Positions 1 through 12,377 of a stretch of 64,000 nucleotides of DNA are shown here, in pieces. The DNA lies in assembly GCA_964626075.1 (NCBI GenBank), contig CAZVDD010000011.1, positions 12,566 to 76,565 of the forward strand. Reading direction: 5' to 3'. Both the position numbers and the translations under genes were made by a program. Origin of the DNA: an uncultured bacterium (lineage in GTDB: Bacteria > Hydrothermota > Tepidihabitantia > Tepidihabitantales > Tepidihabitantaceae). Each line of letters starts with the position of its first letter. The stretch's first letter is position 1. The notes under the pieces are model-generated. The model was not told the origin of the DNA and searched no databases. It saw nothing but the letters and a program-made list of their open reading frames with translations.

Positions 1-1336
1 TTGGCAGGACCACGGAGAATTCTGAACCCTTGCCTGGTGTGCTTTCAACGCGAATTTTACCCTGATGTAGTTCGACGATATGTTTAACAATTGCCAGTCC
101 CAAACCGGTTCCCCCACTTTGTCTGGAACGGGAGCGGTCAACAACATAGAATCGCTCAAAAATTCTCGGGATGTGTTCGGCGGCAATGCCAATGCCCGTA
201 TCCTGAATCGAAATCACTACTTGGTCATCTACCACCTTAACACGCAGAGACACGGTGCCTTTTTCGGTGTATTTGATTGCGTTATCCAGCAGGTTGATAA
301 GTGCCTGCTCTAACCGCAGTCCGTCACCTTTTATCACCGGTGGTGGTTCGGGTATCTCTTGTATTAGTTTCAAACCCTTCCTTTTTGCCGCGTTCTCAAA
401 GATGGCGAGAACATTATTCGCGATGGTTTTCAGATTGACATCCTCCCAATAGAGCTTGACATTCGGATGTTCCAGCGCCGAGAGGTTGAGTAAATCCTGA
501 ACAAGGTTGATTAAGCGTTCGGTATGACGGCGGACAATTTGCAGATAAACCGCATTGTTTTCATCGGCAGTTTCCTCCATCGTTTCAATATAGCCCTTAA
601 TTGCGGTTAAGGGTGTTTTTAGTTCGTGTGAGACACTGGCAACAAAATCTCTTTTAATTTTTTCCGTGGTGACGATTTCGGTAATATCGGTAAAAGTCAG
701 AACGCGCTGGCCGGTATCGGATAAATGGACGGCGCTACAGAGAAATGTCTTTGAATTGAACTCAATTTCACCGAAGGCGGTGGTTTGTCCTGAAGTTAAT
801 TGTTGGAGCAGGTTTGAGAGCTGCGGAGTGCGAATAACTTCCCAGTAAAATTTGCCCGTGGCCCGTTCTCCATTCAAAAACTGTTGGAATTTATTATTCA
901 CGGCAACGATTTTATTTTGACGGTCCAGAATTAACAACCCTTCTTGTGATGTGTCGAACATGGCATCCCACCACGCTTTTTTCTGTCGTAATTGGACGAT
1001 TTCTTCATCAATGCGATTGGTAGTCTGGTTTAACACATTAAACAGGCGGGTGACTATTCCCAAACGGACCGGCGGAGACGGCACGGAAGTCTGACCGGAG
1101 CCGAGGCGGACGCATATCTCTTCAATTGCAACAGCCAGGGTCTGCAGCCGGGAAAACAGAATCCAGGCACTTAATATCGATACGACTATCAGGACGATGC
1201 TCGCGATTACCAGAACCGTTACTGTTGGTAGTTTAAGCAGGAAAAGGATTAACAAAACAGCAGCCGGAAGGCCGGCAACGATGAGATATCTACCGAGGAT
1301 GTGCAAGAAAAGCTGCTTCTCTGGTTTAAGATTCAC
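1..1336 (-). CDS. phoR: Sensor histidine kinase, PhoR-like. The C-terminal few residues run off the window edge.
   Basis: The reverse-strand frame is open from a GTG at about 1336 to the window edge. Its translation has an N-terminal TM helix, a PAS-like segment and a HisKA box (SVSHELKTPLT). It also has an HATPase_c domain (DTGIGI, GGTGLGLAIVK). It lies immediately downstream of phoB. Confidence 0.8.
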   Translation of the reverse strand, partial: MNLKPEKQLFLHILGRYLIVAGLPAAVLLILFLLKLPTVTVLVIASIVLIVVSILSAWILFSRLQTLAVAIEEICVRLGSGQTSVPSPPVRLGIVTRLFNVLNQTTNRIDEEIVQLRQKKAWWDAMFDTSQEGLLILDRQNKIVAVNNKFQQFLNGERATGKFYWEVIRTPQLSNLLQQLTSGQTTAFGEIEFNSKTFLCSAVHLSDTGQRVLTFTDITEIVTTEKIKRDFVASVSHELKTPLTAIKGYIETMEETADENNAVYLQIVRRHTERLINLVQDLLNLSALEHPNVKLYWEDVNLKTIANNVLAIFENAAKRKGLKLIQEIPEPPPVIKGDGLRLEQALINLLDNAIKYTEKGTVSLRVKVVDDQVVISIQDTGIGIAAEHIPRIFERFYVVDRSRSRQSGGTGLGLAIVKHIVELHQGKIRVESTPGKGSEFSVVLP

Positions 1337-1345
1337 AATGTGGCT

Positions 1346-2080
1346 TTAAAGTTCGAGTTTATACCCGACCCCGCGGATATTGCGTATCAGTTCGCCCGCT
1401 TTGCCCATTTTTTTTCGCAGGTGCTGAATATGGACATCAATAGTGCGGTCTAATATCGGTTTGTCATATCCCCACAGTTCATCAATAATCTGTTCCCTGG
1501 TAAAAACCCAGCCGGGTTTCGCTGCCAATACCATTAAAATCCGGAACTCGGTAGCGGTGAGGTCAATTTTCCTACCCGCCGCGGTTACTTCATGCTTTTT
1601 AGGATAAATAATCAATTCCGTACCAACGGTAATTTTTTCGTCGGCGGTTATTTGTTCCTGCCGCCGCAGTACCGCGCGAACACGGGCAACAACCTCTTTG
1701 GGCGAAAACGGTTTCGTAATGTAGTCATCAGCACCTAACTCTAAACCGGTAACACGGTCCGATTCTTCGCCGCGCGCGGTAAGCATAATTATCGGTATCG
1801 AGGCGAACCGTGGTTCCTGCTTGAGAAAACGGCAGATATCAATACCATCGACATCCGGGAGCATAAGGTCAAGGATTATCAGATGCGGCATCGTCTTTTC
1901 GAGGAATTGATAAAGCTCGGCGCCGCTTGTCATCTTTTTGACGCTAAAACCCGATTTTGTCAGGTGGAGGGATAGTAGTTCAAGAATATCCGGTTCGTCG
2001 TCCACGATTGCAATAAGTCGAGTTCGGGAAAGGGGCGTTTGTTCCTGTTTTTTATCAGGTGGGGAATTCACATTTGCCAT
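1346..2080 (-). CDS. phoB: OmpR-family phosphate-regulon response regulator
   Basis: 244 aa with an REC domain (IAIVDDEPDI, LDLMLPDVDG) and a winged-helix C-terminus (GVGYKL). It sits between phoU and the kinase and overlaps phoU by 26 nt. Confidence 0.85.
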   Translation of the reverse strand: MANVNSPPDKKQEQTPLSRTRLIAIVDDEPDILELLSLHLTKSGFSVKKMTSGAELYQFLEKTMPHLIILDLMLPDVDGIDICRFLKQEPRFASIPIIMLTARGEESDRVTGLELGADDYITKPFSPKEVVARVRAVLRRQEQITADEKITVGTELIIYPKKHEVTAAGRKIDLTATEFRILMVLAAKPGWVFTREQIIDELWGYDKPILDRTIDVHIQHLRKKMGKAGELIRNIRGVGYKLEL

Positions 2081-2723
2081 GTTTGATTACCGCTCCGGTC
2101 ACTGCATAAACCACATCTTCGGAGATATTGGTTGCGAGGTCGGCAATGCGTTCCAAATTCAAAGATATGAGCATGAGTTTTAATGACCGGTCAATGGTTG
2201 TAGCATCACTGGTCATATAAGTGATAAGTTCGCGGTTAATCTGGTCTTTCAACGAATCAACAATTGAGTCGCGGGCACAGACCTGGCGCGCCAGTGCGGC
2301 ATCTTTTTTTGTAAAGGCATCGAGACTGTCGCTCAGCATTTGAATTGTATGTTGCGCCATGCGGGGGAGGTCAATGAGCGGTTTTACCGCTGGACGCGGG
2401 ATAAGGAACAACGCAGCCTCGGCGATGTTAACCGCGTGGTCGCCGATGCGCTCCAGGTCATTATTTATTTTAATAATCATCGTAATGGTACGGAGATTAG
2501 ACGCCTCAGGTTGATGCAGGGCAATGAGGTTAATGGCGGTATCTTCAATTTCGATCTCCTCTTGGTTGATTTTCGGTTCAATCTCATTGATAACCTTTTC
2601 AGCCAGTTGGTGGTCTTTTGTCACCAGTGCCTGAACACTGCTGTCGACCATATTTTCTACTGCGGCCGCCATTGCCAGCAGTTTTTCTTTTAGGGCAGCG
2701 ATTTTTTCTTCGAGTAGTGTCAT
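2055..2723 (-). CDS. phoU: Phosphate signalling complex protein PhoU
   Basis: 222 aa with two PhoU repeats (ERIGDHAVNIAE, ERIADLATNISE), directly after pstB. Confidence 0.9.
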   Translation of the reverse strand: MTLLEEKIAALKEKLLAMAAAVENMVDSSVQALVTKDHQLAEKVINEIEPKINQEEIEIEDTAINLIALHQPEASNLRTITMIIKINNDLERIGDHAVNIAEAALFLIPRPAVKPLIDLPRMAQHTIQMLSDSLDAFTKKDAALARQVCARDSIVDSLKDQINRELITYMTSDATTIDRSLKLMLISLNLERIADLATNISEDVVYAVTGAVIKHGKCEFPT

Positions 2724-2785
2724 TGTTCATTTCCTCTCTGTCACTATAATGATAACTAAATTTTTCCTTTGGACAAGTACCGACA

Positions 2786-3544
2786 TTAGCCAAATTTACC
2801 GGTTAGAAAATCTTCAGTGCGCTTATCCTGCGGCTTAGTAAAAATTCGTTCTGTCGGCCCGAACTCCACAAGTTCACCTAGCATTAAAAAGGCACAGTGG
2901 TCTGATACACGAGCCGCTTGTTGCAAGTTGTGGGTGACGATGACGATGGTGTAATATTTCTTCAACTGGACAATTAGTTCTTCCAGTTTCGCTGTAGAGA
3001 AGGGGTCAAGAGCTGAAGCCGGTTCATCAAGAAGTATTATTTCAGGACCGACAGCAAGACAACGAGCGATGCAGAGGCGCTGTTGTTGTCCGCCGGAGAG
3101 GGAAAAGGCGTTGTCTCCCAGCCGATGTTTAACTTCGTCCCAGAGGTTTGCCAACTGGAGTGCTTCTTTAACCCGGCGTGGCACCTCCGCACCCGACGCC
3201 AGGTTGTGGATTTTGATCCCGAAAGCGACATTTTCGAAAATTGATTTGGGGAAGGGATTCGGTTTCTGAAAAACCATACCCACCCGTTTGCGCAGTTCAA
3301 TAACATCGACCTTTTCTCGGAAAATATCTTCGCCATCAATCAGAATACTCCCGGTAATTCTCGTATCGGTTATGAGGTCGTTCATCCGGTTGATGCTGCG
3401 TAGCAAGGTGGATTTACCACAACCCGAGGGGCCCATAATGGCAGTTACTGTTCGGGGTAAAATAGTAAACGAGATATTTTTAAGAATGTGATTTGTCCCA
3501 AACCAGAGGTTTAGATTGCTGATCTCAATATGTCCTTTTTCCAT
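2786..3544 (-). CDS. pstB: Phosphate ABC transporter ATP-binding protein with fully canonical motifs
   Basis: Walker [11 protein letters not shown]-loop MVFQKPNPF, signature LSGGQQQRL, Walker B ILLDEP, H-loop VTHN, C-terminal GKFG. Confidence 0.9.
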
Positions 3545-3547
3545 ATT

Positions 3548-4447
3548 TTAAACCTGCCATTTGTTAGTTGCAGCAAAACGCATTCTCGTAAAAAAGGCGA
3601 TGATGTCAAACCCGAGTACGAAAATCAGTAATACAACTGCGGTCGCGAACGCAATCGGGCGAACTTTTGTAAGTTGGTCGTGCTGGGTTGCCAGAACAAA
3701 GATGTGATAGGGCAACGCCATAAACTTTTCCAGAGGCGAACGCGGAATTTGACGAGTAAAATAGGTTACGCCGGTGAAAAGGATGGGCGCTGTTTCACCC
3801 ACGGTGCGGGCGATAGCGAGAAGTACGCCGGTGAGAATGCCGGGGAATGCGTAAGGTAAAACATTGCGCCGGATTGACTCCCATTTAGTTGCACCCAGGG
3901 CGAGTGCTCCTTCTCGAAAAGAGTTGGGAATTGCCGTAATAGACTCCTCGACCGTTGTAATAATCCAGGGTAGACTCATCAAGCCGAGAGTTAATCCTGA
4001 AGCGAGTACCGAAAGGCCGATCTGGAACGCTCGAATAAATAAAGCGACGCCGAAAAGTCCGTAGACAATACTCGGAATACCAGCAAGGGCGCGGATTGAG
4101 CTGCGCATAACCTGAGTAATAGAGTTATTGGGTGCGTACTCGGCAAGATAGATACCGGAAAAGAGGCCGACTGGTACAGAAAAAAGGAGCGATATGAGAG
4201 TAACATATAATGTGCCGATGATACAGGGGAAAATTCCGCCGGCGGTCATTCCTTTCTCGGGTGGCTGGGTGAGGAATTTCCAGGATATCACATTGATACC
4301 GTTCTTGAATAAGTAGAACACCATAAAACCGATGAAAAGGATAAAAATTATTAAAGGGATGGCGAGGATAGCAAAGCCGATGTTACTGGGGAAATGCTTT
4401 TTGTTTAGCCGACGGTAATTTTCAGGCGGTGGCAAAGTTCTGTTCAT
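3548..4447 (-). CDS. pstA: Phosphate ABC transporter permease PstA
   Basis: 299 aa polytopic protein with an EAA-type loop. Its position follows pstC. Confidence 0.9.
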   Translation of the reverse strand: MNRTLPPPENYRRLNKKHFPSNIGFAILAIPLIIFILFIGFMVFYLFKNGINVISWKFLTQPPEKGMTAGGIFPCIIGTLYVTLISLLFSVPVGLFSGIYLAEYAPNNSITQVMRSSIRALAGIPSIVYGLFGVALFIRAFQIGLSVLASGLTLGLMSLPWIITTVEESITAIPNSFREGALALGATKWESIRRNVLPYAFPGILTGVLLAIARTVGETAPILFTGVTYFTRQIPRSPLEKFMALPYHIFVLATQHDQLTKVRPIAFATAVVLLIFVLGFDIIAFFTRMRFAATNKWQV

Positions 4448-5370
4448 AAAGTGAAACTCCTTTTTTCCCGTCTGATTAGCGATTCGGCGATTAAGTTGGT
4501 CGCTAAGGCGATAACAAAGAGAACAAAACCAAGTGCAAAAAGGCTAAAGAAGTGGATGGAATTGGCTGCGGTTTCGCCCAGTTCAATGGCGAGGGTTGTA
4601 GTAATGGTGCGAACCGGGTCAAAAAGCGAGCGGGGAATGATGGGTGCATTCCCCGCCACCATTAAAACTGCCATCGTTTCACCAATTGCCCGACCAAAGC
4701 CCAGCATCACCGCTGCCAGAATACCGGAGCGTGCTGCCGGTAGGATTACCTTGATTGCGGTAGTCCAGGGTGATGCTCCGAGGGCATACGCTGCTTCCCG
4801 ATAGGAGTGAGGGACCACGCGCAGGGCATCTTCGGATACTGATATAATAGTGGGGAGAGACATCACTGCAAGGATGATACTGGCGGTGAAAAGGTTCAAG
4901 CCGGATGAAAGGTTAAAAGTCCGAGCAATAAGGGGCGCCAGAACCACCAGTCCAAATAAGCCGATGACTACCGAGGGAAATCCGGCAAAGAGTTCCACTA
5001 CCATTTTAACACCGATGCGCACCCAACCGGTAAGTCTTTCCGCGATAAATATGGCACCGGCAATTCCCAGCGGAACTGAAATGGTGAGGGCAATTAGTGT
5101 TGTTAACAGACTGCCCAAGAATAACGGGATTAAACCGTAGTGTGGTTTGCCGTAGGCGTCAGGGTTCCAAACAGTTCCAAATAGAAACCCGAGTATTGTA
5201 AGCGGCCGGGATTCTGGGTCGCCGGGGTCAGTTCCCGGTGCTGGAATGAAAGCCCGTACGCCGTAGGAGAACAGAAAGAGAAGGATACCAAACAAGACCC
5301 CGGCGGCCAAAACAGCGTTAACAAAGAAGGTTATCCCTGCGAATCTGTCGATCTTCTTGCGCAGCCGCAC
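4444..5370 (-). CDS. pstC: Phosphate ABC transporter permease PstC
   Basis: 308 aa polytopic permease with a 4-nt overlap with pstA. Confidence 0.9.
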   Translation of the reverse strand: MRLRKKIDRFAGITFFVNAVLAAGVLFGILLFLFSYGVRAFIPAPGTDPGDPESRPLTILGFLFGTVWNPDAYGKPHYGLIPLFLGSLLTTLIALTISVPLGIAGAIFIAERLTGWVRIGVKMVVELFAGFPSVVIGLFGLVVLAPLIARTFNLSSGLNLFTASIILAVMSLPTIISVSEDALRVVPHSYREAAYALGASPWTTAIKVILPAARSGILAAVMLGFGRAIGETMAVLMVAGNAPIIPRSLFDPVRTITTTLAIELGETAANSIHFFSLFALGFVLFVIALATNLIAESLIRREKRSFTL

Positions 5371-5405
5371 AGGAACCTTCCTTTACTTTTACTTTTTATC
5401 GTTGC

Positions 5406-6266
5406 TCACTGCAGTATTTTATTGTTCTTTTCGATGTACGGTTGGGTGACGGCGACAAACCCTTCTTCCTCAACGATTTTCTGACCTTCCGGGCTCAGTT
5501 CAAACCGAATAAAATCGAGCACCTGACCTTTGGGTTTACCGTTGGTGTACTGATATAGAGGTCGGGTAAGAGGATAAGCACCGCTTTTCACATCGGCTTC
5601 GTTCAACGGAGAAATGTACTGGTCCTGGGAACTTTTTGCGACCGCTAAGGGTCTTATGCCCTCAACATTTCGAATGTATCCTAGCCCCACATAACCAATG
5701 CCCCCTTCGTCGTTTTTTACCGCATCAACAATCTGGGCGTTGCCGTTCATCTGCCGCATATAAGATGCGTACTCTCCTTTTACCACTTCTTCCCGGAAGA
5801 AGACGAATGTACCGGAGTTGGGTTGTCGGCCATAGAGGACGATTTTCTTGTTGGGACCGCCGACTTCGTTCCAGTTTTTAATTTCGCCGCGGTATATTGC
5901 ACCGATTTGCTGGACGGTAAGGTTCTTTACCGGATTCTTACTGTTGACGATAACCGCTAAGCCATCAAGGGCGATGACGATTTCCACCGGATTCACGCCC
6001 TGGGCGCGAGCCGCCGAAATTTCCTTTGATTTGATGGCGCGCGATGCGTTGGCGATATCGACCTCACGGTTGGTGATTGCGGTGATGCCGACACCGGAAC
6101 CACCACCCGCAACCGAAACAGTGACATCACCACGGACCGCTCCAAATCCCTCAGCAAGTCGCTGTACGAGGTTCAGCATTGTATCTGAACCCTTGACGAT
6201 AATTTCACCCGCGATGAGCGATGTGCTCAGGGCAAAGGTTGTTATTAACGCAAGAAGTTTTTTCAT
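5406..6266 (-). CDS. pstS: Phosphate-binding protein PstS (periplasmic substrate-binding protein)
   Basis: 286 aa with a signal peptide and a PBP-fold phosphate-binding region (SVAGGGSGVGI). It heads pstCAB. Confidence 0.85.
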   Translation of the reverse strand: MKKLLALITTFALSTSLIAGEIIVKGSDTMLNLVQRLAEGFGAVRGDVTVSVAGGGSGVGITAITNREVDIANASRAIKSKEISAARAQGVNPVEIVIALDGLAVIVNSKNPVKNLTVQQIGAIYRGEIKNWNEVGGPNKKIVLYGRQPNSGTFVFFREEVVKGEYASYMRQMNGNAQIVDAVKNDEGGIGYVGLGYIRNVEGIRPLAVAKSSQDQYISPLNEADVKSGAYPLTRPLYQYTNGKPKGQVLDFIRFELSPEGQKIVEEEGFVAVTQPYIEKNNKILQ

Positions 6267-6292
6267 TTTATTGCCTCCTTTGACTTACTTAT

Positions 6293-7483
6293 TTATAGTT
6301 CTGGTTTATTGATTATCGTGCTCCACTCAAACCGCACCTGGGCGAGCAGAACATCGGTTGGTTTTAACTCGGTATTTTTGGGTTGAGTTCTGGTCCAGGC
6401 AAACTGAAACTCAAGACCGGGTTTGCCTTTTTCCCGCCGCATGAAATGGTAATTAAACCCAGCACCGTAGCGGATGAAACTTTTATCTTTATTGAGTTGC
6501 ATTTCATTGTCGTGTTCCTCTTTACGGTCCCACAGTGAGAAGCGGCCGAAAATTTCTAAGGTTCGTTTTGCAAGAGTAACCGTCGGCACAAGGTCTAACC
6601 CGCTGAACGAGTATTTCTTTGTCTTTTCGTTTAAGGTGGAGTCAACAACTGCGCCGGCACTGTCAAAGTTGATTTTGTAGTAACTGAAAAAGCGGGTGTA
6701 GTTGTAATTGATGTATTCGCCGAGCAGAGATACTGGGCCGTAAGCTAGTTTGAACATCGGGGCAAGGGCAAAACGATTTTTATTTGCCGTGTCAGCATTC
6801 ATAAAAAAAGTGCTACCGGATTGAGTCGTTCTGCCTTTTTTATCGTTTTTGTAATGACTCTGGTCAGCGGCATTTGTGAACATTGAGACGCCCAAAGCGA
6901 TGCCGGGGAATGGTGTGAGTCGAACATTGCCGAGTAGTTCGGGGGATAAGTTGACATACTTACCAGCGTACTTATAGCCTTCGCCGTTATAGACACCCAG
7001 TTGCAGTTCTCCCAGACCAGATGGGAGATAGCCGTTGATGGTCAATCCGTAGTCGGCTGATGCGCAAATCCCCTGGTCATCGGCGAGAGATTTTTCCGGA
7101 TGGGTGTAATCCCAGGAGTAGATAAGTCCAAAGTAGTGTTTCTGCAAACCGGCGGTGAAATTGAAATCGCGCACTACGGGCATTGCGATGTCGGCGTAAG
7201 CCTCTTTTAGCCGGACAGTAGCTCCTTCGGGGTATTTGTCTGATGAGAAGATGTCGACGGTCATTTTGGTAAAGAAGGGCGGGGCCCACTGGTAAGAAAA
7301 CCGGAGATAACCCCGTTCCAGAGAGAAGCGACTGACGCTCGGGTCGGTAATTTTGAATTCTGATGATTGGTTGGTGTAGCGGAACCAGCCGTTGTGTTCA
7401 AGCTCGGTTTGCCCTGGGTCAAGGGCGAACAGCGCGGCGGTGAAAATTGCCACCGCAAGCAGGACGATAGATTTACGTGACAA
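6293..7483 (-). CDS. Outer-membrane beta-barrel, phosphate-selective porin O/P-like. The start was re-called to a TTG preceded by AAGGAGG.
   Basis: The track ORF starts at 7513. However, AAGGAGG followed by a 6-nt spacer and TTG lies at about 7483, giving M-SRKSIVLLAVAIFTAALFA (signal peptide). The protein is about 396 aa, rich in alternating aromatic/hydrophilic beta-strands. It sits immediately upstream of pstS and behind a Pho-box-like array. Confidence 0.5.
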   Translation of the reverse strand: MSRKSIVLLAVAIFTAALFALDPGQTELEHNGWFRYTNQSSEFKITDPSVSRFSLERGYLRFSYQWAPPFFTKMTVDIFSSDKYPEGATVRLKEAYADIAMPVVRDFNFTAGLQKHYFGLIYSWDYTHPEKSLADDQGICASADYGLTINGYLPSGLGELQLGVYNGEGYKYAGKYVNLSPELLGNVRLTPFPGIALGVSMFTNAADQSHYKNDKKGRTTQSGSTFFMNADTANKNRFALAPMFKLAYGPVSLLGEYINYNYTRFFSYYKINFDSAGAVVDSTLNEKTKKYSFSGLDLVPTVTLAKRTLEIFGRFSLWDRKEEHDNEMQLNKDKSFIRYGAGFNYHFMRREKGKPGLEFQFAWTRTQPKNTELKPTDVLLAQVRFEWSTIINKPEL

Positions 7484-7535
7484 GGTTGCCTCCTTTATAA
7501 GGTTTTTAGACATCGCTAAAAATGGTACGGGCAGA

Positions 7536-7575
7536 AAGTTAAATGGATATAACCCTTTGGTTAATTTTTGGTTAA
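7536..7575 (-). promoter_or_regulatory. Pho-box-like array of four 7-nt direct repeats at exact 11-bp periodicity, upstream of the porin-pst-phoU-phoBR operon
   Basis: The minus strand reads TTAACCAaaaaTTAACCAaaggGTTATATccatTTAACTTtctg. The repeats start at plus-strand 7569, 7558, 7547 and 7536. The array is about 50-90 nt upstream of the re-called porin start, which is the architecture of PhoB-bound promoters. Confidence 0.5.
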
Positions 7576-7634
7576 CTCGTTCGGTGGTATAATGGTAAAA
7601 GCGAATTCCGGCTAACTAACTAAAAATCAATTTA

Positions 7635-8411
7635 TTAGCCGAATTTTCCCGAGATGTAGTTTTCTGTGTCAGGGTGTTTTGGTTTGGTAAAAATCTGGCT
7701 GGTTGTGCCGAACTCTATCAGGCGTCCCAGAAGCATAAATCCGGTGAAGTCCGAAACCCGTGCCGCTTGTTGCATATTGTGGGTGACGATGATAATGGTG
7801 TATTTCTCCCGGAGCTGGCGGAGTAGTTCTTCAATGTGCAGAGTGGCAATTGGGTCGAGAGCCGAGCAGGGTTCGTCAAGAAGCAGGACTTCGGGCTCAA
7901 CTGCCAGTAAACGGGCGATGCAGAGGCGCTGGCGTTGTTCGTCGGTAAGGGTTAAGGCATTTTTGTGGAGGTGGTCTTTGAGTTCGTCCCAGAGGCGAAC
8001 AGCCCGCAAACTGCGTTCAACGATTTCGGCAAGTCGAGAGTGACGCCTTTCACCGTGGATTCGTGGACCATAGGCAACATTGTCAAACACCGAGAACGGG
8101 AAGGCGTTAGGTCGTTGAAAAACCATGCCGACGCGCTGGCGCAGCTCCAGGACATTGAGTCGGTAAATATCGACGCCGTCAAGGAGAATTTCTCCCCGGA
8201 TGCGAGCACCTTCAATCAGTTCGTTCATCCGGTTGAAACTACGTAAGAGGGTAGATTTACCACAACCAGAAGGCCCGATAATTGCGGTGATGGCACACGG
8301 AGGGAAGTTGATGTTAACATCCTGAACCGCCCGAAAAGCGCCATAAAACACATTGAGGTTTTTAGTCTGAATTTTTGCGTTGGCGGTGGTTAACATCGTT
8401 TTGCTCCTCAA
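7635..8411 (-). CDS. pstB: PstB paralogue (PstB2a) with an intact ATPase core but a degenerate ABC signature
   Basis: Walker [11 protein letters not shown]-loop MVFQRPNAF, Walker B LLLDEP and H-loop VTHN are canonical. The signature reads LTDEQRQRL instead of LSGGQQQRL. Confidence 0.85.
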   Translation of the reverse strand: MRSKTMLTTANAKIQTKNLNVFYGAFRAVQDVNINFPPCAITAIIGPSGCGKSTLLRSFNRMNELIEGARIRGEILLDGVDIYRLNVLELRQRVGMVFQRPNAFPFSVFDNVAYGPRIHGERRHSRLAEIVERSLRAVRLWDELKDHLHKNALTLTDEQRQRLCIARLLAVEPEVLLLDEPCSALDPIATLHIEELLRQLREKYTIIIVTHNMQQAARVSDFTGFMLLGRLIEFGTTSQIFTKPKHPDTENYISGKFG

Positions 8412-9157
8412 CCGATGCGTCCGGAGATGTAGTCATCGGTGCGTTTGTCTGCCGGGCGGGTGAAGATGATTTCCGCTGAGTTTACTTCAATCAGTTGACC
8501 GGCGAGAAAAAAAGCAACCCGGTCCGAGACCCGTGCCGCCTGTTTGACATTGTTTGTTACGAGAATGAAAGTGTAGCGGTTTTTTAACTGGCGCATAGCA
8601 TCTTCAATCTGCGCCGTGGAGATAGGGTCGAGGCCCGAACAAGGTTCATCCATCATTACAACCTCGGGGTCAAGGGCGAGGGTGCGAGCGATGCAGAGCC
8701 TTTGCTGCTGACCGCCAGAGAGTCGCAGTGCCGAAGTGTCGAGGCGGTCTTTTACCTCATCCCAGAGGAAGGCAGCACGCAGCGTGTGTTCGACAATCTC
8801 GGTTAGTTTTCTTTTGTTGCGAATGCCCTTGAGCCGGGGGCCGTAGGCGATGTTGTCAAAGATGGTGCCCGGTAGTGGAATCGGAGTGGCAAATATGAGT
8901 CCAACCCGCCGACGTAATGTTTCGATATCCCAATTAAGTACATCTTTACCATCAAGGAGTAGTTTACCGGTTCGGCTAAACCCGGGCTGGGTTTCAATCA
9001 ACCGGTTAATAGTTCGTAAAAGGGTCGTCTTGCCGGAGTGAGCCGGACCGATAATGGAGAAAATTTCATGTTCCAAGATGGTGAGGTTGATGTTGGCAAG
9101 AATTGATTTGCCATCAGCGGTAACAGAGAGGTTTTGAATGGTAATTTTCTCGTTCAT
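8408..9157 (-). CDS. pstB: PstB paralogue (PstB2b) with a canonical signature but degenerate Walker A, Q-loop and H-loop
   Basis: Signature LSGGQQQRL and Walker B VMMDEP are intact. Walker A is GPAHSGKTT (G4 to H). The Q-loop is LIFATP (Q to A). The H-loop is VTNN (H to N). There is a 4-nt overlap with pstB2a. Confidence 0.85.
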   Translation of the reverse strand: MNEKITIQNLSVTADGKSILANINLTILEHEIFSIIGPAHSGKTTLLRTINRLIETQPGFSRTGKLLLDGKDVLNWDIETLRRRVGLIFATPIPLPGTIFDNIAYGPRLKGIRNKRKLTEIVEHTLRAAFLWDEVKDRLDTSALRLSGGQQQRLCIARTLALDPEVVMMDEPCSGLDPISTAQIEDAMRQLKNRYTFILVTNNVKQAARVSDRVAFFLAGQLIEVNSAEIIFTRPADKRTDDYISGRIG

Positions 9158-9994
9158 CTATCGGAAGCGGCGGGTAAGACGGAACAGAAGGATATAGGCG
9201 AAGGCGTTGATTACGAGGATGGAGATGATTAAGAGCAGGGCAGTGCCGTAGGCTCGGGGCATTGAGATACCCTCCCGGGCAAGGATATAGAAGTGAACTG
9301 CCATGGTACGTGCCGGGTCGAAAATTGAACGGGGCATGCGAAGGGATGAGCCGGCGGTGAATATTACCGCGGCCGTTTCAGCAACGCTCCTGCCCAAGCC
9401 GAGGATAATTCCGGTCAGGATGCCGGGCAGGGCATTGGGCAGTACGACATTGAGAATCGTCTGGGATTTTGTGCCTCCCAGCGAGTAACTGACTTCCCGA
9501 TAAGCATATGGTACGGTCCGAATCGCTTCTTCACTGGTGCGAATGATGGTCGGAAGAATCATCACGGCGAGGGTAAGGCTACCGGCAAGAATTGACCAAC
9601 CCATCTTCAGATAAATGACAAATAGGATGAACCCAAATAAGCCGAAGATAATTGAAGGAACACCAGCAAGGGCATCGGCGCCAAAACGAATAATCCGGGT
9701 CAGGGCTGATTCTCTGGTGTATTCGGTCAGATAGACGGCGGTGCCAACCCCGAGCGGCGTAGCGATGACAATGGCAAGGAGTGCAAGATAGATAGTGGCG
9801 ACAATTGTGGGCAGGATACCACCTTCTTTGCCCATCCGTTCCGGCATCCCGAAGAGAAACTCCGGCGTCAGGGTTGGCACACCTTTGGCGGTTATGTAAC
9901 CGATGATGAAGAAAAGGATTGTCAGGGTGAAGAGGGTAAGTAAGGCGAGGAGAAACCAGACGAGACGCTGAATTGTTAAGGGTCGGCGCTTCAT
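9158..9994 (-). CDS. pstA: Phosphate ABC permease PstA, second copy
   Basis: 278 aa polytopic permease homologous to the first pstA, with the same gene order. Confidence 0.85.
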   Translation of the reverse strand: MKRRPLTIQRLVWFLLALLTLFTLTILFFIIGYITAKGVPTLTPEFLFGMPERMGKEGGILPTIVATIYLALLAIVIATPLGVGTAVYLTEYTRESALTRIIRFGADALAGVPSIIFGLFGFILFVIYLKMGWSILAGSLTLAVMILPTIIRTSEEAIRTVPYAYREVSYSLGGTKSQTILNVVLPNALPGILTGIILGLGRSVAETAAVIFTAGSSLRMPRSIFDPARTMAVHFYILAREGISMPRAYGTALLLIISILVINAFAYILLFRLTRRFR

Positions 9995-10830
9995 ACCTTT
10001 TTTCGCAGGGCAAGTAGGGCAAAGGTGTTAAGAAGGGCGACGATGATGAAGAGGACGACGCCCGTGGCAAAGAGCGCCTCCTGATGGGTACCGGAGGCGT
10101 AGCCCATCTCGAGCGCGATGTTGGAGGTGAGAGTTCGGACCGGCTCAAGGGGCGATTTTGGTATGATAAGGGCGTTACCCGCAACCATAATGACCGCCAT
10201 CGTTTCACCGATTGCCCGGCCCATAGCGAGGATTAAACTGGCGATTATGCCACTTTTCGCAGCCGGCAAGGTTAGCCGATAGAGCGTCTGCCAGCGGGTG
10301 GCGCCAACCGCGAGCGAACCTTCCTTATAACTGAGTGGGACCGCGTTCAAAGCGTCAAGGGATATGGCGATGACAGTGGGTAGAATCATAATGCCGAGGA
10401 TGATGCCCGCGGCAAGAACGGAAAATCCCGGGCCACCGAGCGTTCTCCTAATTAGGGGTACCAAAACCAAAACGCCGATGAAGCCATAGACAACTGAAGG
10501 GATGCCAGCAAGGAGTTCGATCAGCGGTTTAAGGATACGGACGCTCCAGCGCGGGGCAAATTCGGCAAGGAACATCGCACAGGCAAGGCCCAGTGTGCCT
10601 CCCAGGATTAAGGCGAGCACGGTTACTTGCAGGGAGCCGACAATCATCGGCAATATCCCAAAGTGACCTCTGGTTGGCGCCCAGTTTGAAGAGAAAAGGA
10701 AGTTTGCCGGGCCAATTCGGAAGATGAGCGGCAGCCCTTCATAAAAGATAAAAAGGGCAATCAGGAACAAAGCGGTGACCGCGGAAAGGGCGCAGAGCAG
10801 TAAAATCTTTTCAAAAAGCTTTTCCCTCAT
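9991..10830 (-). CDS. pstC: Phosphate ABC permease PstC, second copy
   Basis: 279 aa permease with a 4-nt overlap with pstA2. Confidence 0.85.
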   Translation of the reverse strand: MREKLFEKILLLCALSAVTALFLIALFIFYEGLPLIFRIGPANFLFSSNWAPTRGHFGILPMIVGSLQVTVLALILGGTLGLACAMFLAEFAPRWSVRILKPLIELLAGIPSVVYGFIGVLVLVPLIRRTLGGPGFSVLAAGIILGIMILPTVIAISLDALNAVPLSYKEGSLAVGATRWQTLYRLTLPAAKSGIIASLILAMGRAIGETMAVIMVAGNALIIPKSPLEPVRTLTSNIALEMGYASGTHQEALFATGVVLFIIVALLNTFALLALRKKV

Positions 10831-11630
10831 GGCACCGCCTTAATCAATCCTTCATCCGCCAGCGTTTTCTGGCCCTCCGGACTCAATACAAAATCAAGAA
10901 AAGAACGGGCAAGGGCATCGGGCTCACCATTGGTGAGAAAAAGGAACCGCCGGGCAAGAGGGTAGGTATGAGCGACGATGGTTGATTCAGAAGGGGTGAT
11001 GCCGTTAACGGCTAAAGCGCTAACCCGCTCATCCACAAGCCCGAATGAGATGTAACCAATGGCGGATGGGTCCGAGGCAACAATTTCCCGCACCGCCCCA
11101 TTAGAGTCCTGAACAAGCGCATCCGCTGCGAAGTGTGCCCCGTGCATTACGATTTCTTCGAAACACCCCCTTGTGCCCGAACCTTCTTCGCGCGTGATGA
11201 CCGTGATTTTCTGGTCGGGACCACCCAGTGCGCGCCAGTTGCGAATTTTACCCGAGAAGACATCCTGTAACTGTTCAAGTGTGATGTTTCTCACCGGGTT
11301 ATGTTTATGAACAATCAGGACGATACCATCAAGGGCGATTGTCCACTGCTGAAGGTTTTGTTCCTCGGGCGTTAATGGTCGGGAGGACATACCGATGTCG
11401 CAGATACAATTCTGGACGGCGCGGATGCCGGCACTGGAACCGCCGCCCTGGACATTGATTTCGACCCCCGGGTGTTGCTGCATATATAGTTCAGCAAGGA
11501 GTTCGGCAAAAGGTTGAACCGAAGTTGAGCCAGCGATTGTCAGGCTGGTTTCGGCGCTGCGCCGGCAACCGGCAAAGGAAATAAAGATAACAGGAAACAG
11601 GGCGAAAAGTATGGTGATAAAGTTCCGCAC
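10827..11630 (-). CDS. pstS: Phosphate-binding lipoprotein PstS, second copy
   Basis: 267 aa with a GTG start and a lipobox (ISFAGC). It has PBP-fold phosphate-binding motifs (GSTSVQP, GGGSSAGI). Confidence 0.8.
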   Translation of the reverse strand: MRNFITILFALFPVIFISFAGCRRSAETSLTIAGSTSVQPFAELLAELYMQQHPGVEINVQGGGSSAGIRAVQNCICDIGMSSRPLTPEEQNLQQWTIALDGIVLIVHKHNPVRNITLEQLQDVFSGKIRNWRALGGPDQKITVITREEGSGTRGCFEEIVMHGAHFAADALVQDSNGAVREIVASDPSAIGYISFGLVDERVSALAVNGITPSESTIVAHTYPLARRFLFLTNGEPDALARSFLDFVLSPEGQKTLADEGLIKAVP

Positions 11631-11738
11631 CGGGTATTAAAAGTTAACGATTATTCGCTCTCGGTCAAGTTTGTATGTAAGAGAAGACAAAGCACAGTTT
11701 TTTGTTGACTGAGGGGCGATGTTCTGTATGCTTGAGCG

Positions 11739-12377
11739 ATGAAACCCGGGCAACTTTTTATCTGGTTTTCTGTAATTACCGCAGCGGTTTTTGCCGGTCC
11801 TGAAACGGTGTTAGGTGGTAACGCTGCAATTAGGGGCTGGGTAAAGTTACGGGAGCGGTATCTCGGGCTGAAGTCGCTCAGCGGCAGTTTTACTGAGAGA
11901 TTGGTGTCGGAGATGACAGGGGAAACAACCTTTTTTGCCGGCAGTTTTTACTTTCAGATGCCCAATCGATTTCGGCTGGAGGTCACCAAGCCGATGCGTC
12001 AGGTGATTGTGGGTAATGAATCGATTGTCTGGTTTTACCTTCCGGAGGAAAAACGGGCGGTGATGCAGAGGCGACAGGAACCCTTTCCTTTGCTGGCGTT
12101 TATTGCCCCGCTCCTCGATACAACCGGCACCATTACCGAACAGAGGTTGCCCGATGGCACAATGCTGCTCTTAATTCAAGATGAAGCCGGGGCGGTTTTC
12201 CGGGATATGAAACTGGAACTGGACAAAAGCGGCTCCAGGGTTGATGCCTTTTCGTTCGTTGACGACTGGGGCAATAGATGCCGATTTGTCTTGCAGAATC
12301 AAAGATGGAATCCGGTGCTCGGGCAGAAACTTTTCCGTTTTGTGCCGCCACCGGGCACCACAGTTGAGTACCAGTAA
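11739..12377 (+). CDS. LolA-like periplasmic lipoprotein carrier / outer-membrane lipoprotein-sorting protein
   Basis: 212 aa with a signal peptide. The SLSGSFTE motif and overall size resemble the LolA/LppX fold. This was not verified by search. Confidence 0.45.
   Translation: MKPGQLFIWFSVITAAVFAGPETVLGGNAAIRGWVKLRERYLGLKSLSGSFTERLVSEMTGETTFFAGSFYFQMPNRFRLEVTKPMRQVIVGNESIVWFYLPEEKRAVMQRRQEPFPLLAFIAPLLDTTGTITEQRLPDGTMLLLIQDEAGAVFRDMKLELDKSGSRVDAFSFVDDWGNRCRFVLQNQRWNPVLGQKLFRFVPPPGTTVEYQ

Follow-up and report, generated by a model that had tools for sequence, protein, structure and literature searches.

Complementary degeneracy of ATP-site motifs in the tandem PstB proteins of a second Pst operon from an uncultured WOR-3 bacterium

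A second Pst operon with two adjacent pstB genes

The DNA analysed here is a stretch of 64,000 nucleotides (hereafter the window) from an uncultured bacterium of the family Tepidihabitantaceae (assembly GCA_964626075.1, contig CAZVDD010000011.1, positions 12,566 to 76,565 of the forward strand), which the names carried in databases by identical or near-identical proteins assign to candidate division WOR-3. Positions 1..11630 of the window form, on the minus strand, a single long phosphate-acquisition cluster of ~11.6 kb which encodes two Pst systems. The subject of this report is the second of these, whose two PstB ATPases, PstB2b and PstB2a, depart from the canonical ATP-binding motifs in complementary ways. 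In operon order, system 2 opens with pstS2 (10827..11630), encoding a lipoprotein-type phosphate-binding protein (TIGR02136, 243 bits against a cut-off of 206.6; Pfam PBP_like_2), followed by the permease genes pstC2 (9991..10830; TIGR02138, 294.4 bits against 196.45) and pstA2 (9158..9994; TIGR00974, 277.4 bits against 193.45). Since PstS2, PstC2 and PstA2 all exceed the curated NCBIfam cut-offs, system 2 is a bona fide Pst-type importer. Directly after these three genes, and likewise on the minus strand, lie the adjacent genes pstB2b (8408..9157; 249 aa) and pstB2a (7635..8396; 253 aa), whose products (hereafter the b and a subunits) are both homologous to PstB over their full length. The operon has no phoU of its own, a putative porin gene coming next instead.

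The start of PstB2a was placed at the ATG at 8396 and not at the TTG at 8411 chosen by the lister of open reading frames (ORFs), which overlaps the pstB2b stop codon. The ATG is situated 7 nt after a GGAG, which in turn immediately follows the pstB2b stop TGA (8410..8408), and the 253-aa protein initiated there has the same length as the database protein P0121. The GGAG abutting the pstB2b stop suggests that the translation of the two genes is coupled.

ATP-binding motifs of PstB2a and PstB2b

An earlier note, made from the window's sequence, had claimed that the two PstB proteins carry complementary motif defects and form an obligate heterodimer with one dead ATP site. The motif positions on which this claim depends were checked by alignment to the co-resident PstB1 and to the solved PstB of Escherichia coli (PDB 9k3x). 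PstB1 (2786..3544, minus strand), the lone PstB of the first operon, was described in that note as fully canonical, and is indeed so in every ATP-binding cassette (ABC) motif, with a TIGR00972 score of 381.6 (cut-off 343.2). The alignments also confirm that the substituted positions in the other two proteins are the Walker A, Q-loop, H-loop and signature residues.

PstB2a is 54% identical to E. coli PstB (9k3x_C, residues 1-253, E 3.5e-87) and scores 368.7 with TIGR00972, above the cut-off. Its Walker A (8250..8276), Q-loop Gln, Walker B (DEP) and H-loop (VTHN; 7776..7787) are canonical, and its D-loop reads SALD. The sole defect in its ATP motifs is the signature, L150-Q154, which reads LTDEQ (7935..7949) and aligns without a gap onto the LSGGQ of 9k3x, in agreement with the earlier description of this protein.

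PstB2b shows the reverse pattern. It is 48% identical to E. coli PstB (9k3x_C, residues 4-249, E 1.9e-71) and 49% identical to PstB2a; its TIGR00972 score of 320.2 falls below the cut-off of 343.2, although this model is still the best match by a wide margin. Consistent with this score, its relatives carry generic database names. Given that the two proteins share 48-54% of their residues with the solved E. coli PstB, their fold is beyond question. The signature L146-Q150 is an intact LSGGQ (8708..8722), Walker B (VVMMDEP; 8642..8662) retains Asp170 and Glu171, and the D-loop is SGLD. In the Q-loop (LIFATP; 8882..8899), by contrast, Gln is replaced by Ala90, and in the H-loop (VTNN; 8549..8560) His is replaced by Asn202, with Lys205 following in place of Gln. 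The states of the signature, Walker B, Q-loop and H-loop had been recognised beforehand. A further departure, beyond the first description, lies in the A-loop region, where SVTADG (9110..9127) aligns to NLWFG, NVFYG and NFYYG of PstB1, PstB2a and E. coli PstB, respectively, and the aromatic residue is lost.

The Walker A motif of PstB2b, G37-T45 (GPAHSGKTT; 9023..9049), calls for a more qualified statement. It had been presented as deviant, and so it is with respect to the ABC-type GxxGxGKST, the second Gly being replaced by His (compare GPSGCGKST in PstB1). It departs from this pattern only, however, as it still matches the general P-loop GxxxxGK[ST] and retains Lys43 and Thr44. The P-loop of RecA, for example, reads GPESSGKTT. 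The idea that the variant Walker A alone renders the site of PstB2b dead was therefore rejected; it is the Q-loop, the H-loop and the signature of the partner that carry the case for inactivity.

Neither protein thus possesses the complete ABC catalytic motif set (GxxGxGKST, Q-loop Gln, LSGGQ, hhhhDE and H-loop His): PstB2a is without LSGGQ, and PstB2b is without the second Walker A Gly, the Q-loop Gln and the H-loop His. In PstB, as in every ABC nucleotide-binding domain, each ATP is held by Walker A and Walker B in one monomer and the LSGGQ of the other (PMC12976172). When the substitutions are placed on the 9k3x alignment, all of them fall, as had been claimed, in a single composite site made up of the Walker side of PstB2b and the signature of PstB2a, whereas the reciprocal site, composed of the Walker motifs and H-loop of PstB2a and the LSGGQ of PstB2b, is fully consensus.

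Conservation and selection in close relatives

The 120 closest database clusters were collected for each of the two proteins, the PstB2b set spanning 67-100% identity. Among the relatives of PstB2b, the Walker A reads GPAHSGKTT in 109 of 120, with His retained as the fourth residue in the remaining 11, while the Q-loop Ala is present in every one of the 108 sequences with a parsable Q-loop. The motifs which PstB2b keeps are conserved as well: LSGGQ in 118 and DEP in 119 of the 120 clusters, and the D-loop SGLD in all of them. In the relatives of PstB2a, the Walker A and Q-loop are canonical throughout (120/120), VTHN is found in 116 and the degenerate signature LTDEQ[RK] in 113.

A column test, which selected positions conserved at ≥90% inside each family and different between a and b, returned 23 columns that cluster on Walker A (Ala39, His40, Ser41 and Thr44 of b), the Q-loop (Ile88, Ala90, Thr91 and Leu95 of b), the signature (Thr151, Asp152 and Glu153 of a) and the H-loop (Leu199, Asn202 and Lys205 of b). 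The Walker A His40, Ala90, Asn202 and Lys205 are 100% conserved in the b family, as is the Q-loop Gln in the a family. Pairwise ratios of non-synonymous to synonymous substitution rates (dN/dS; NG86) range from 0.03 to 0.24 for b and from 0.06 to 0.28 for a, indicating that both genes are under purifying selection.

Judged by these comparisons, the deviant residues are themselves constrained. The motif pattern is also far beyond chance, as the discriminating columns cluster on the ATP motifs and their states recur in 120 + 120 relatives. The asymmetric pair is, on this evidence, a conserved family trait and not the product of private decay or a peculiarity of the genome from which the window derives.

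Tandem pairs in other genomes

One genome per GTDB species was scanned for the back-translated pattern GP[AS]HSGKTTLL, which yielded 29 loci, 25 of them true pstB loci; L012, L022 and L028 are chance pattern matches outside pstB. One locus (L004) ends at the locus edge and two (L018, L024) are fragmentary; 20 b-a pairs are complete. The order pstS-pstC-pstA-b-a, found in 26 loci, is invariant wherever both genes fit.

The complete pairs are drawn from WOR-3, Planctomycetota, Acidobacteriota, Chloroflexota and Zixibacteria. In all 20, the defects lie in one composite site and the other site is consensus, so that the complementarity first seen in the window extends to every complete b-a pair recovered, and to one distant pair described below. 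Every a subunit in these pairs has a canonical Walker A, Q-loop, Walker B and H-loop with a non-LSGGQ signature, and every b subunit combines LSGGQ with a deviant Walker side; among the b subunits from the genome loci, LSGGQ is present in 23 of 23.

The residues by which this pattern is reached differ between lineages. The WOR-3 pairs have LTDEQ in a, and in b an H-loop His-to-Asn change with DEP retained. The a signature is LLPDE in the Planctomycetota pair (L007) and LQLDQ in the Acidobacteriota pair (L001), the b subunit of the latter bearing the further changes DEF and IAID. In the Chloroflexota/Anaerolineae/Zixibacteria loci (L002, L008, L023 and L029), the a signature is LNPGQ, and the b subunit, with the Walker A GPSHSGKTT, retains the H-loop His (VPHS) and has instead a Walker B that reads DNP, the catalytic Glu being replaced by Asn. 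In these four loci, a pair with one dead site would have been reached by another path, one that recalls N334 of the yeast exporter Pdr5. The aromatic residue of the b A-loop also varies: it is absent in most WOR-3 b subunits, that of the window included, but present in some (L006, L009, L019, L025 and L026) and in the b subunits of Chloroflexota, Planctomycetota and Acidobacteriota. Such a lineage-specific loss suggests a stepwise further degeneration of the presumed dead site.

An exhaustive search of 50%-identity representatives brought to light further a-like and b-like clusters. These b-like clusters retain the second Walker A Gly or vary at this motif (GPAGAGKTT, GPAGSGKTS, GPANSGKTT), and have a non-Gln Q-loop, VTNN and SGLD; the a-like clusters have the signatures LSAEQ, LTEEQ or LS[LIV]GQ. 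One such b subunit (P0264; GPAGAGKTT and VTNN) is encoded in a pstC-pstA-b-a locus (L030) next to a partner with the signature LSAEQ, and this pair displays the same complementarity. In the sequences examined, the a signature never returns to LSGGQ and the b Q-loop never returns to Gln.

In a neighbour-joining tree (Kimura distances, 100 bootstraps), the b clade is monophyletic with a bootstrap value of 100/100, and the a and b subtrees have mirror-image topologies. This tree is compatible with one ancient duplication, after which the two genes diversified, or were transferred, together. Probably, to go by these sequences, the arrangement arose once, by duplication and complementary degeneration, and was then kept in several phyla; the pairing has persisted while, lineage by lineage, the residues of the presumed dead site drifted or became fixed anew. 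The carriers found are without exception metagenome-assembled genomes (MAGs), and a tblastn search with PstB2b against 72,556 plasmids retrieved canonical PstB only, at ≤52% identity.

In four loci closely related to the window (L005, L015, L020 and L027), the supercluster consisting of the b-a pair, the porin gene and pstS1-pstC1-pstA1 is kept, and in L027, where the locus is long enough, pstB1, phoU and the response regulator gene follow too. The asymmetric and the canonical Pst system thus coexist stably in the WOR-3 lineage of the window, with L020 as an exception. In L020 (MAG contig CAYPNB010000008.1, 3897..5206), system 2 is eroded: pstC2 is absent, and what is left is a truncated pstS2, a pstA2 fragment, and the first 99 aa of b and the last 128 aa of a in different frames. 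Further downstream, the porin gene and pstS1-pstC1-pstA1 are matched over their length within the stretch covered by the locus. This erosion reflects either real gene decay, the system being dispensable there, or a co-assembly artefact.

Comparison with known systems

The canonical PstSCAB-PhoU system of E. coli (cryo-electron microscopy structures 9k3x and 9k3s; PMC12976172) shares with system 2 the operon core pstS-pstC-pstA-pstB. It differs in that its PstB is a homodimer with two consensus sites, as opposed to the two different PstB proteins and the one consensus site predicted here. Firmicutes and cyanobacteria are known to have pstB genes in tandem; the sole functional study is that of Enterococcus faecalis (PMC12096839). 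The pstB1-pstB2 genes of this species, pstBA/pstBB of Bacillus subtilis and pstB2/pstB3 of Nostoc punctiforme resemble the present pair in being adjacent paralogues after pstA within a single operon; for B. subtilis and Nostoc, the comparison covers the gene arrangement. In E. faecalis, PstB1 and PstB2 are not equivalent in function, but both are canonical (PMC12096839), unlike the pair described here, where degeneracy is complementary and neither homodimer would have a consensus site.

Degenerate ATP sites are, according to reviews, found chiefly in exporters (PMC3971661, PMC7756269). Together with the canonical nature of the E. faecalis tandem, this literature bears out the view of the earlier note that the arrangement is unusual for a Pst system. 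Like the pair of system 2, the asymmetric exporters Pdr5/Cdr1, TM287/288, TAP1/2, TmrAB, CFTR and MRP1 have one consensus and one deviant site, the Walker-side changes of which face a deviant signature in the partner. Yeast Pdr5 would be the closest mechanistic precedent by analogy. Its deviant site is altered in all motifs except the D-loop (Walker B Glu to Asn, His to Tyr, and the signature LNVEQ), and ATP stays bound to it throughout the cycle (PMC8421411, PMC7756269). The parallels with the present family comprise the signature (LNVEQ versus LTDEQ or LSAEQ), the Walker B Glu-to-Asn change shared with the Chloroflexota b subunits, an H-loop without its His and a mostly unchanged D-loop. On the other hand, these exporters have type IV/V folds, and their nucleotide-binding domains (NBDs) are often fused to the transmembrane domains, whereas system 2 belongs to the type I importers that depend on a binding protein, and its NBDs are free-standing; furthermore, the WOR-3 lineage of the window, unlike the exporters, keeps the catalytic Glu and loses the Q-loop Gln.

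Among importers, the examples found in the literature are RbsA and NupO of B. subtilis, whose NBDs are fused (PMC11466899). These also have one ATP site that is deviant in its signature and Walker motifs, but they belong to type II/CUT2-type importers in which both NBDs reside in one polypeptide, while the NBDs of the type I phosphate system discussed here are separate polypeptides. A literature search for degenerate, heterodimeric or asymmetric PstB found no description of such a protein, the E. faecalis tandem-pstB paper dealing with canonical paralogues. Hence, the principle of the asymmetric NBD dimer and the Pst family are both known, while their conserved combination across several phyla is apparently undescribed.

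A predicted PstB2b-PstB2a heterodimer with one working ATP site

On the basis of the motifs and their conservation, we consider it likely that PstS2-PstC2-PstA2 form a type I phosphate importer energised by an obligate PstB2b-PstB2a heterodimer, in which one ATP site is consensus and the other non-hydrolytic. In this model, PstB2a and PstB2b would assemble into a head-to-tail NBD dimer with two composite sites. The Walker A, Q-loop, Walker B and H-loop of PstB2a would form with the LSGGQ of PstB2b the consensus site, at which ATP would be hydrolysed, while the Walker side of PstB2b and the LTDEQ of PstB2a would form the non-hydrolytic one. Loss of hydrolysis is predicted there because the H-loop His and Q-loop Gln are lost (in the Chloroflexota, the Walker B Glu) and signature glycines are replaced by acidic residues. 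As PstB2b retains the Walker A Lys and Thr and the Walker B Asp, it is most likely that a nucleotide remains at this site, or else that the site serves as a permanent latch joining the NBDs. One ATP would then power the transport cycle, as it does in Pdr5, TM287/288 and TAP. For a type I importer, such a one-ATP cycle is plausible by analogy; the importer HisP2MQJ can function with one active site (review PMC3971661).

The strongest argument for an obligate heterodimer comes from the alternatives available to the two proteins: a homodimer of PstB2a would have two LTDEQ sites, and a homodimer of PstB2b two sites without Q-loop Gln and H-loop His. The motif states, their placement in one composite site and the operon context are seen in the sequences, and the claim put forward in the earlier note gains support from conservation, selection and the mirrored trees; we infer that the heterodimer forms physically, that one site has lost hydrolysis, that nucleotide occupies it and that one ATP is consumed per cycle.

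Several observations weigh against this model. PstB2b keeps the catalytic Glu171, the Walker A Lys and Thr, and the P-loop pattern, so that weak hydrolysis at the deviant site is possible, and the loss of the A-loop aromatic argues for weak or no nucleotide binding as opposed to a stably occupied site. Overexpressed PstB2 can replace PstB1 in E. faecalis (PMC12096839), and tandem PstB proteins therefore need not be obligate heterodimers. Monophyly of the a clade has a bootstrap value of just 54/100, and the eroded copy beside a canonical Pst system in L020 points to system 2 being dispensable there. Moreover, the support is wholly sequence-based, and all organisms concerned are uncultured.

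The conservation of the deviant residues also bears on the possibility that the deviant site has been re-purposed, either for another ligand (ADP, Pi, (p)ppGpp or polyphosphate ends) or as a nucleotide-independent latch in which His40 and Lys205 of b would act together with Asp152/Glu153 of a. Either version would make transport sensitive to the energy or phosphate status of the cell. That His40, Ala90, Asn202 and Lys205 of b and Asp152 and Glu153 of a are conserved at 97-100% indeed speaks for positive constraint and not for relaxed drift, and both the lost adenine-stacking A-loop aromatic in the lineage of the window and the acidic residue at the second signature Gly in four of five variants (LTDEQ, LLPDE, LQLDQ and LSAEQ, the fifth being LNPGQ) are in keeping with it. 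The residues vary by phylum, however, with LNPGQ in the Chloroflexota and the Walker A Gly kept in the L030 lineage, which argues against a universal new pocket, and we regard this explanation as unlikely. The intact signature of PstB2b bears in turn on a rather improbable alternative, in which PstB2a homodimers would drive transport despite LTDEQ, and PstB2b would be an accessory or regulatory pseudo-ATPase, for instance a signalling subunit facing PhoU and PhoR. PstB is known to contact both of these proteins (PMC12976172), operon 2 is without a phoU of its own, and in E. faecalis PstB2 suffices when overexpressed, the other paralogue being accessory (PMC12096839). Yet a PstB2a homodimer would carry LTDEQ twice, and acidic replacements of the signature Gly are a hallmark of non-catalytic sites (LNVEQ in Pdr5). 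Strict retention of LSGGQ in b (118/120 relatives and 23/23 loci) is explained only if b donates this motif to the working site, and b is always encoded immediately before a and after pstA, with translation apparently coupled.

It is, lastly, most improbable that operon 2 is a decaying, non-functional duplicate or a sequencing or assembly artefact. The eroded version in the L020 MAG, with its gene fragments and b/a chimera, and the score of PstB2b under the curated PstB cut-off might be taken to point in that direction, but both ORFs of the window are intact, with dN/dS values of 0.03-0.28, PstS2, PstC2 and PstA2 are well above their cut-offs, and the same motif states are found in hundreds of independent assemblies from five phyla. 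The pseudogene and assembly-artefact readings were rejected on the strength of conservation and dN/dS.

Should the heterodimer model hold, it would bear on how much ATP is spent per substrate and on what the second site does in type I importers. These are old questions, on which work has so far relied mostly on engineered mutants (HisP, MalK) and on exporters. A one-site Pst beside a two-site Pst, with the same substrate and in the same genome, would provide a built-in comparison that is conserved across phyla, and could address stoichiometry, coupling, the maximum accumulation ratio and PhoU/PhoR signalling. The pair would also be a clean example of duplication and complementary degeneration locking paralogues into an obligate heterodimer. 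For annotation, PstB2b is named only generically as it falls under the curated PstB cut-off, and such operons seem to carry a redundant ATPase, although both genes are probably indispensable. As a more tentative proposal, which is possible but which we would not call probable, system 2 may belong to the first recognised natural family of single-catalytic-site type I importers, maintained across at least five phyla, the bacteria concerned being uncultured and for the most part anaerobic, and encoded in WOR-3 beside a canonical Pst system; its almost invariant replacement residues (His40, Asn202 and Lys205 of b; Asp152 and Glu153 of a) could make the dead site a nucleotide-independent latch or a regulatory sensor. 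If true, a dead site acting in this way would cut by half the ATP spent on each phosphate, and the cell would possess two mechanistically distinct phosphate pumps.

Porin gene, first Pst operon and regulatory genes

Between the two pst operons lies an ORF of 406 aa (6293..7513, minus strand), a position which is kept in L005, L015, L020 and L027. The ORF itself gave no Pfam or NCBIfam match. It has 304 homologues, mostly from WOR-3 and some of them named 'Porin' in UniRef, and 8 of 21 aligned homologues (50-81% identity) match PF07396 (Porin_O_P; best E 6e-8), which makes it a candidate for a divergent phosphate-selective porin of the OprO/OprP family. Upstream of it, at 7537..7575 on the same strand and ~25-60 nt 5' of its start codon, a direct repeat occurs four times with a period of 11 bp (TTAACC-N5-TTAACC-N5-GTTATA-N5-TTAACT); the window contains no other exact TTAACCN5TTAACC. 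In L005, L015, L020 and L027, similar repeats are found upstream of the porin gene, and in L011, L016, L017, L021 and L024 upstream of pstS2. The repeat resembles a Pho box that would serve the PhoB-type regulator whose gene lies downstream, and the 406-aa ORF probably encodes, to judge from its homologues and setting, a divergent, Pho-regulated outer-membrane phosphate porin. The region upstream of pstS2 in the window (11631..11700) holds no clear copy of the repeat, so the two Pst systems may be regulated differently here, although this is a weak point.

Beyond the porin gene, and still on the minus strand, the first operon comprises pstS1 (5406..6266), pstC1 (4444..5370), pstA1 (3548..4447) and pstB1, and is followed by phoU (2055..2723; Pfam PhoU) and a gene for a PhoB-type response regulator (1346..2080; Pfam Response_reg and Trans_reg_C). 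Directly downstream of the latter is a partial gene for a PhoR-like histidine kinase (1..1343), which runs past the start of the window and whose translation contains an H-box (SHELKTPLT) and a G2-box (GTGLGLAIV). With this kinase gene next to the regulator gene, the whole 11.6-kb stretch may be seen as one Pho supercluster. On its other side, divergent from pstS2, is a gene for a LolA-family outer-membrane lipoprotein carrier (11739..12377, plus strand), which, together with the porin, indicates a diderm envelope for the host.

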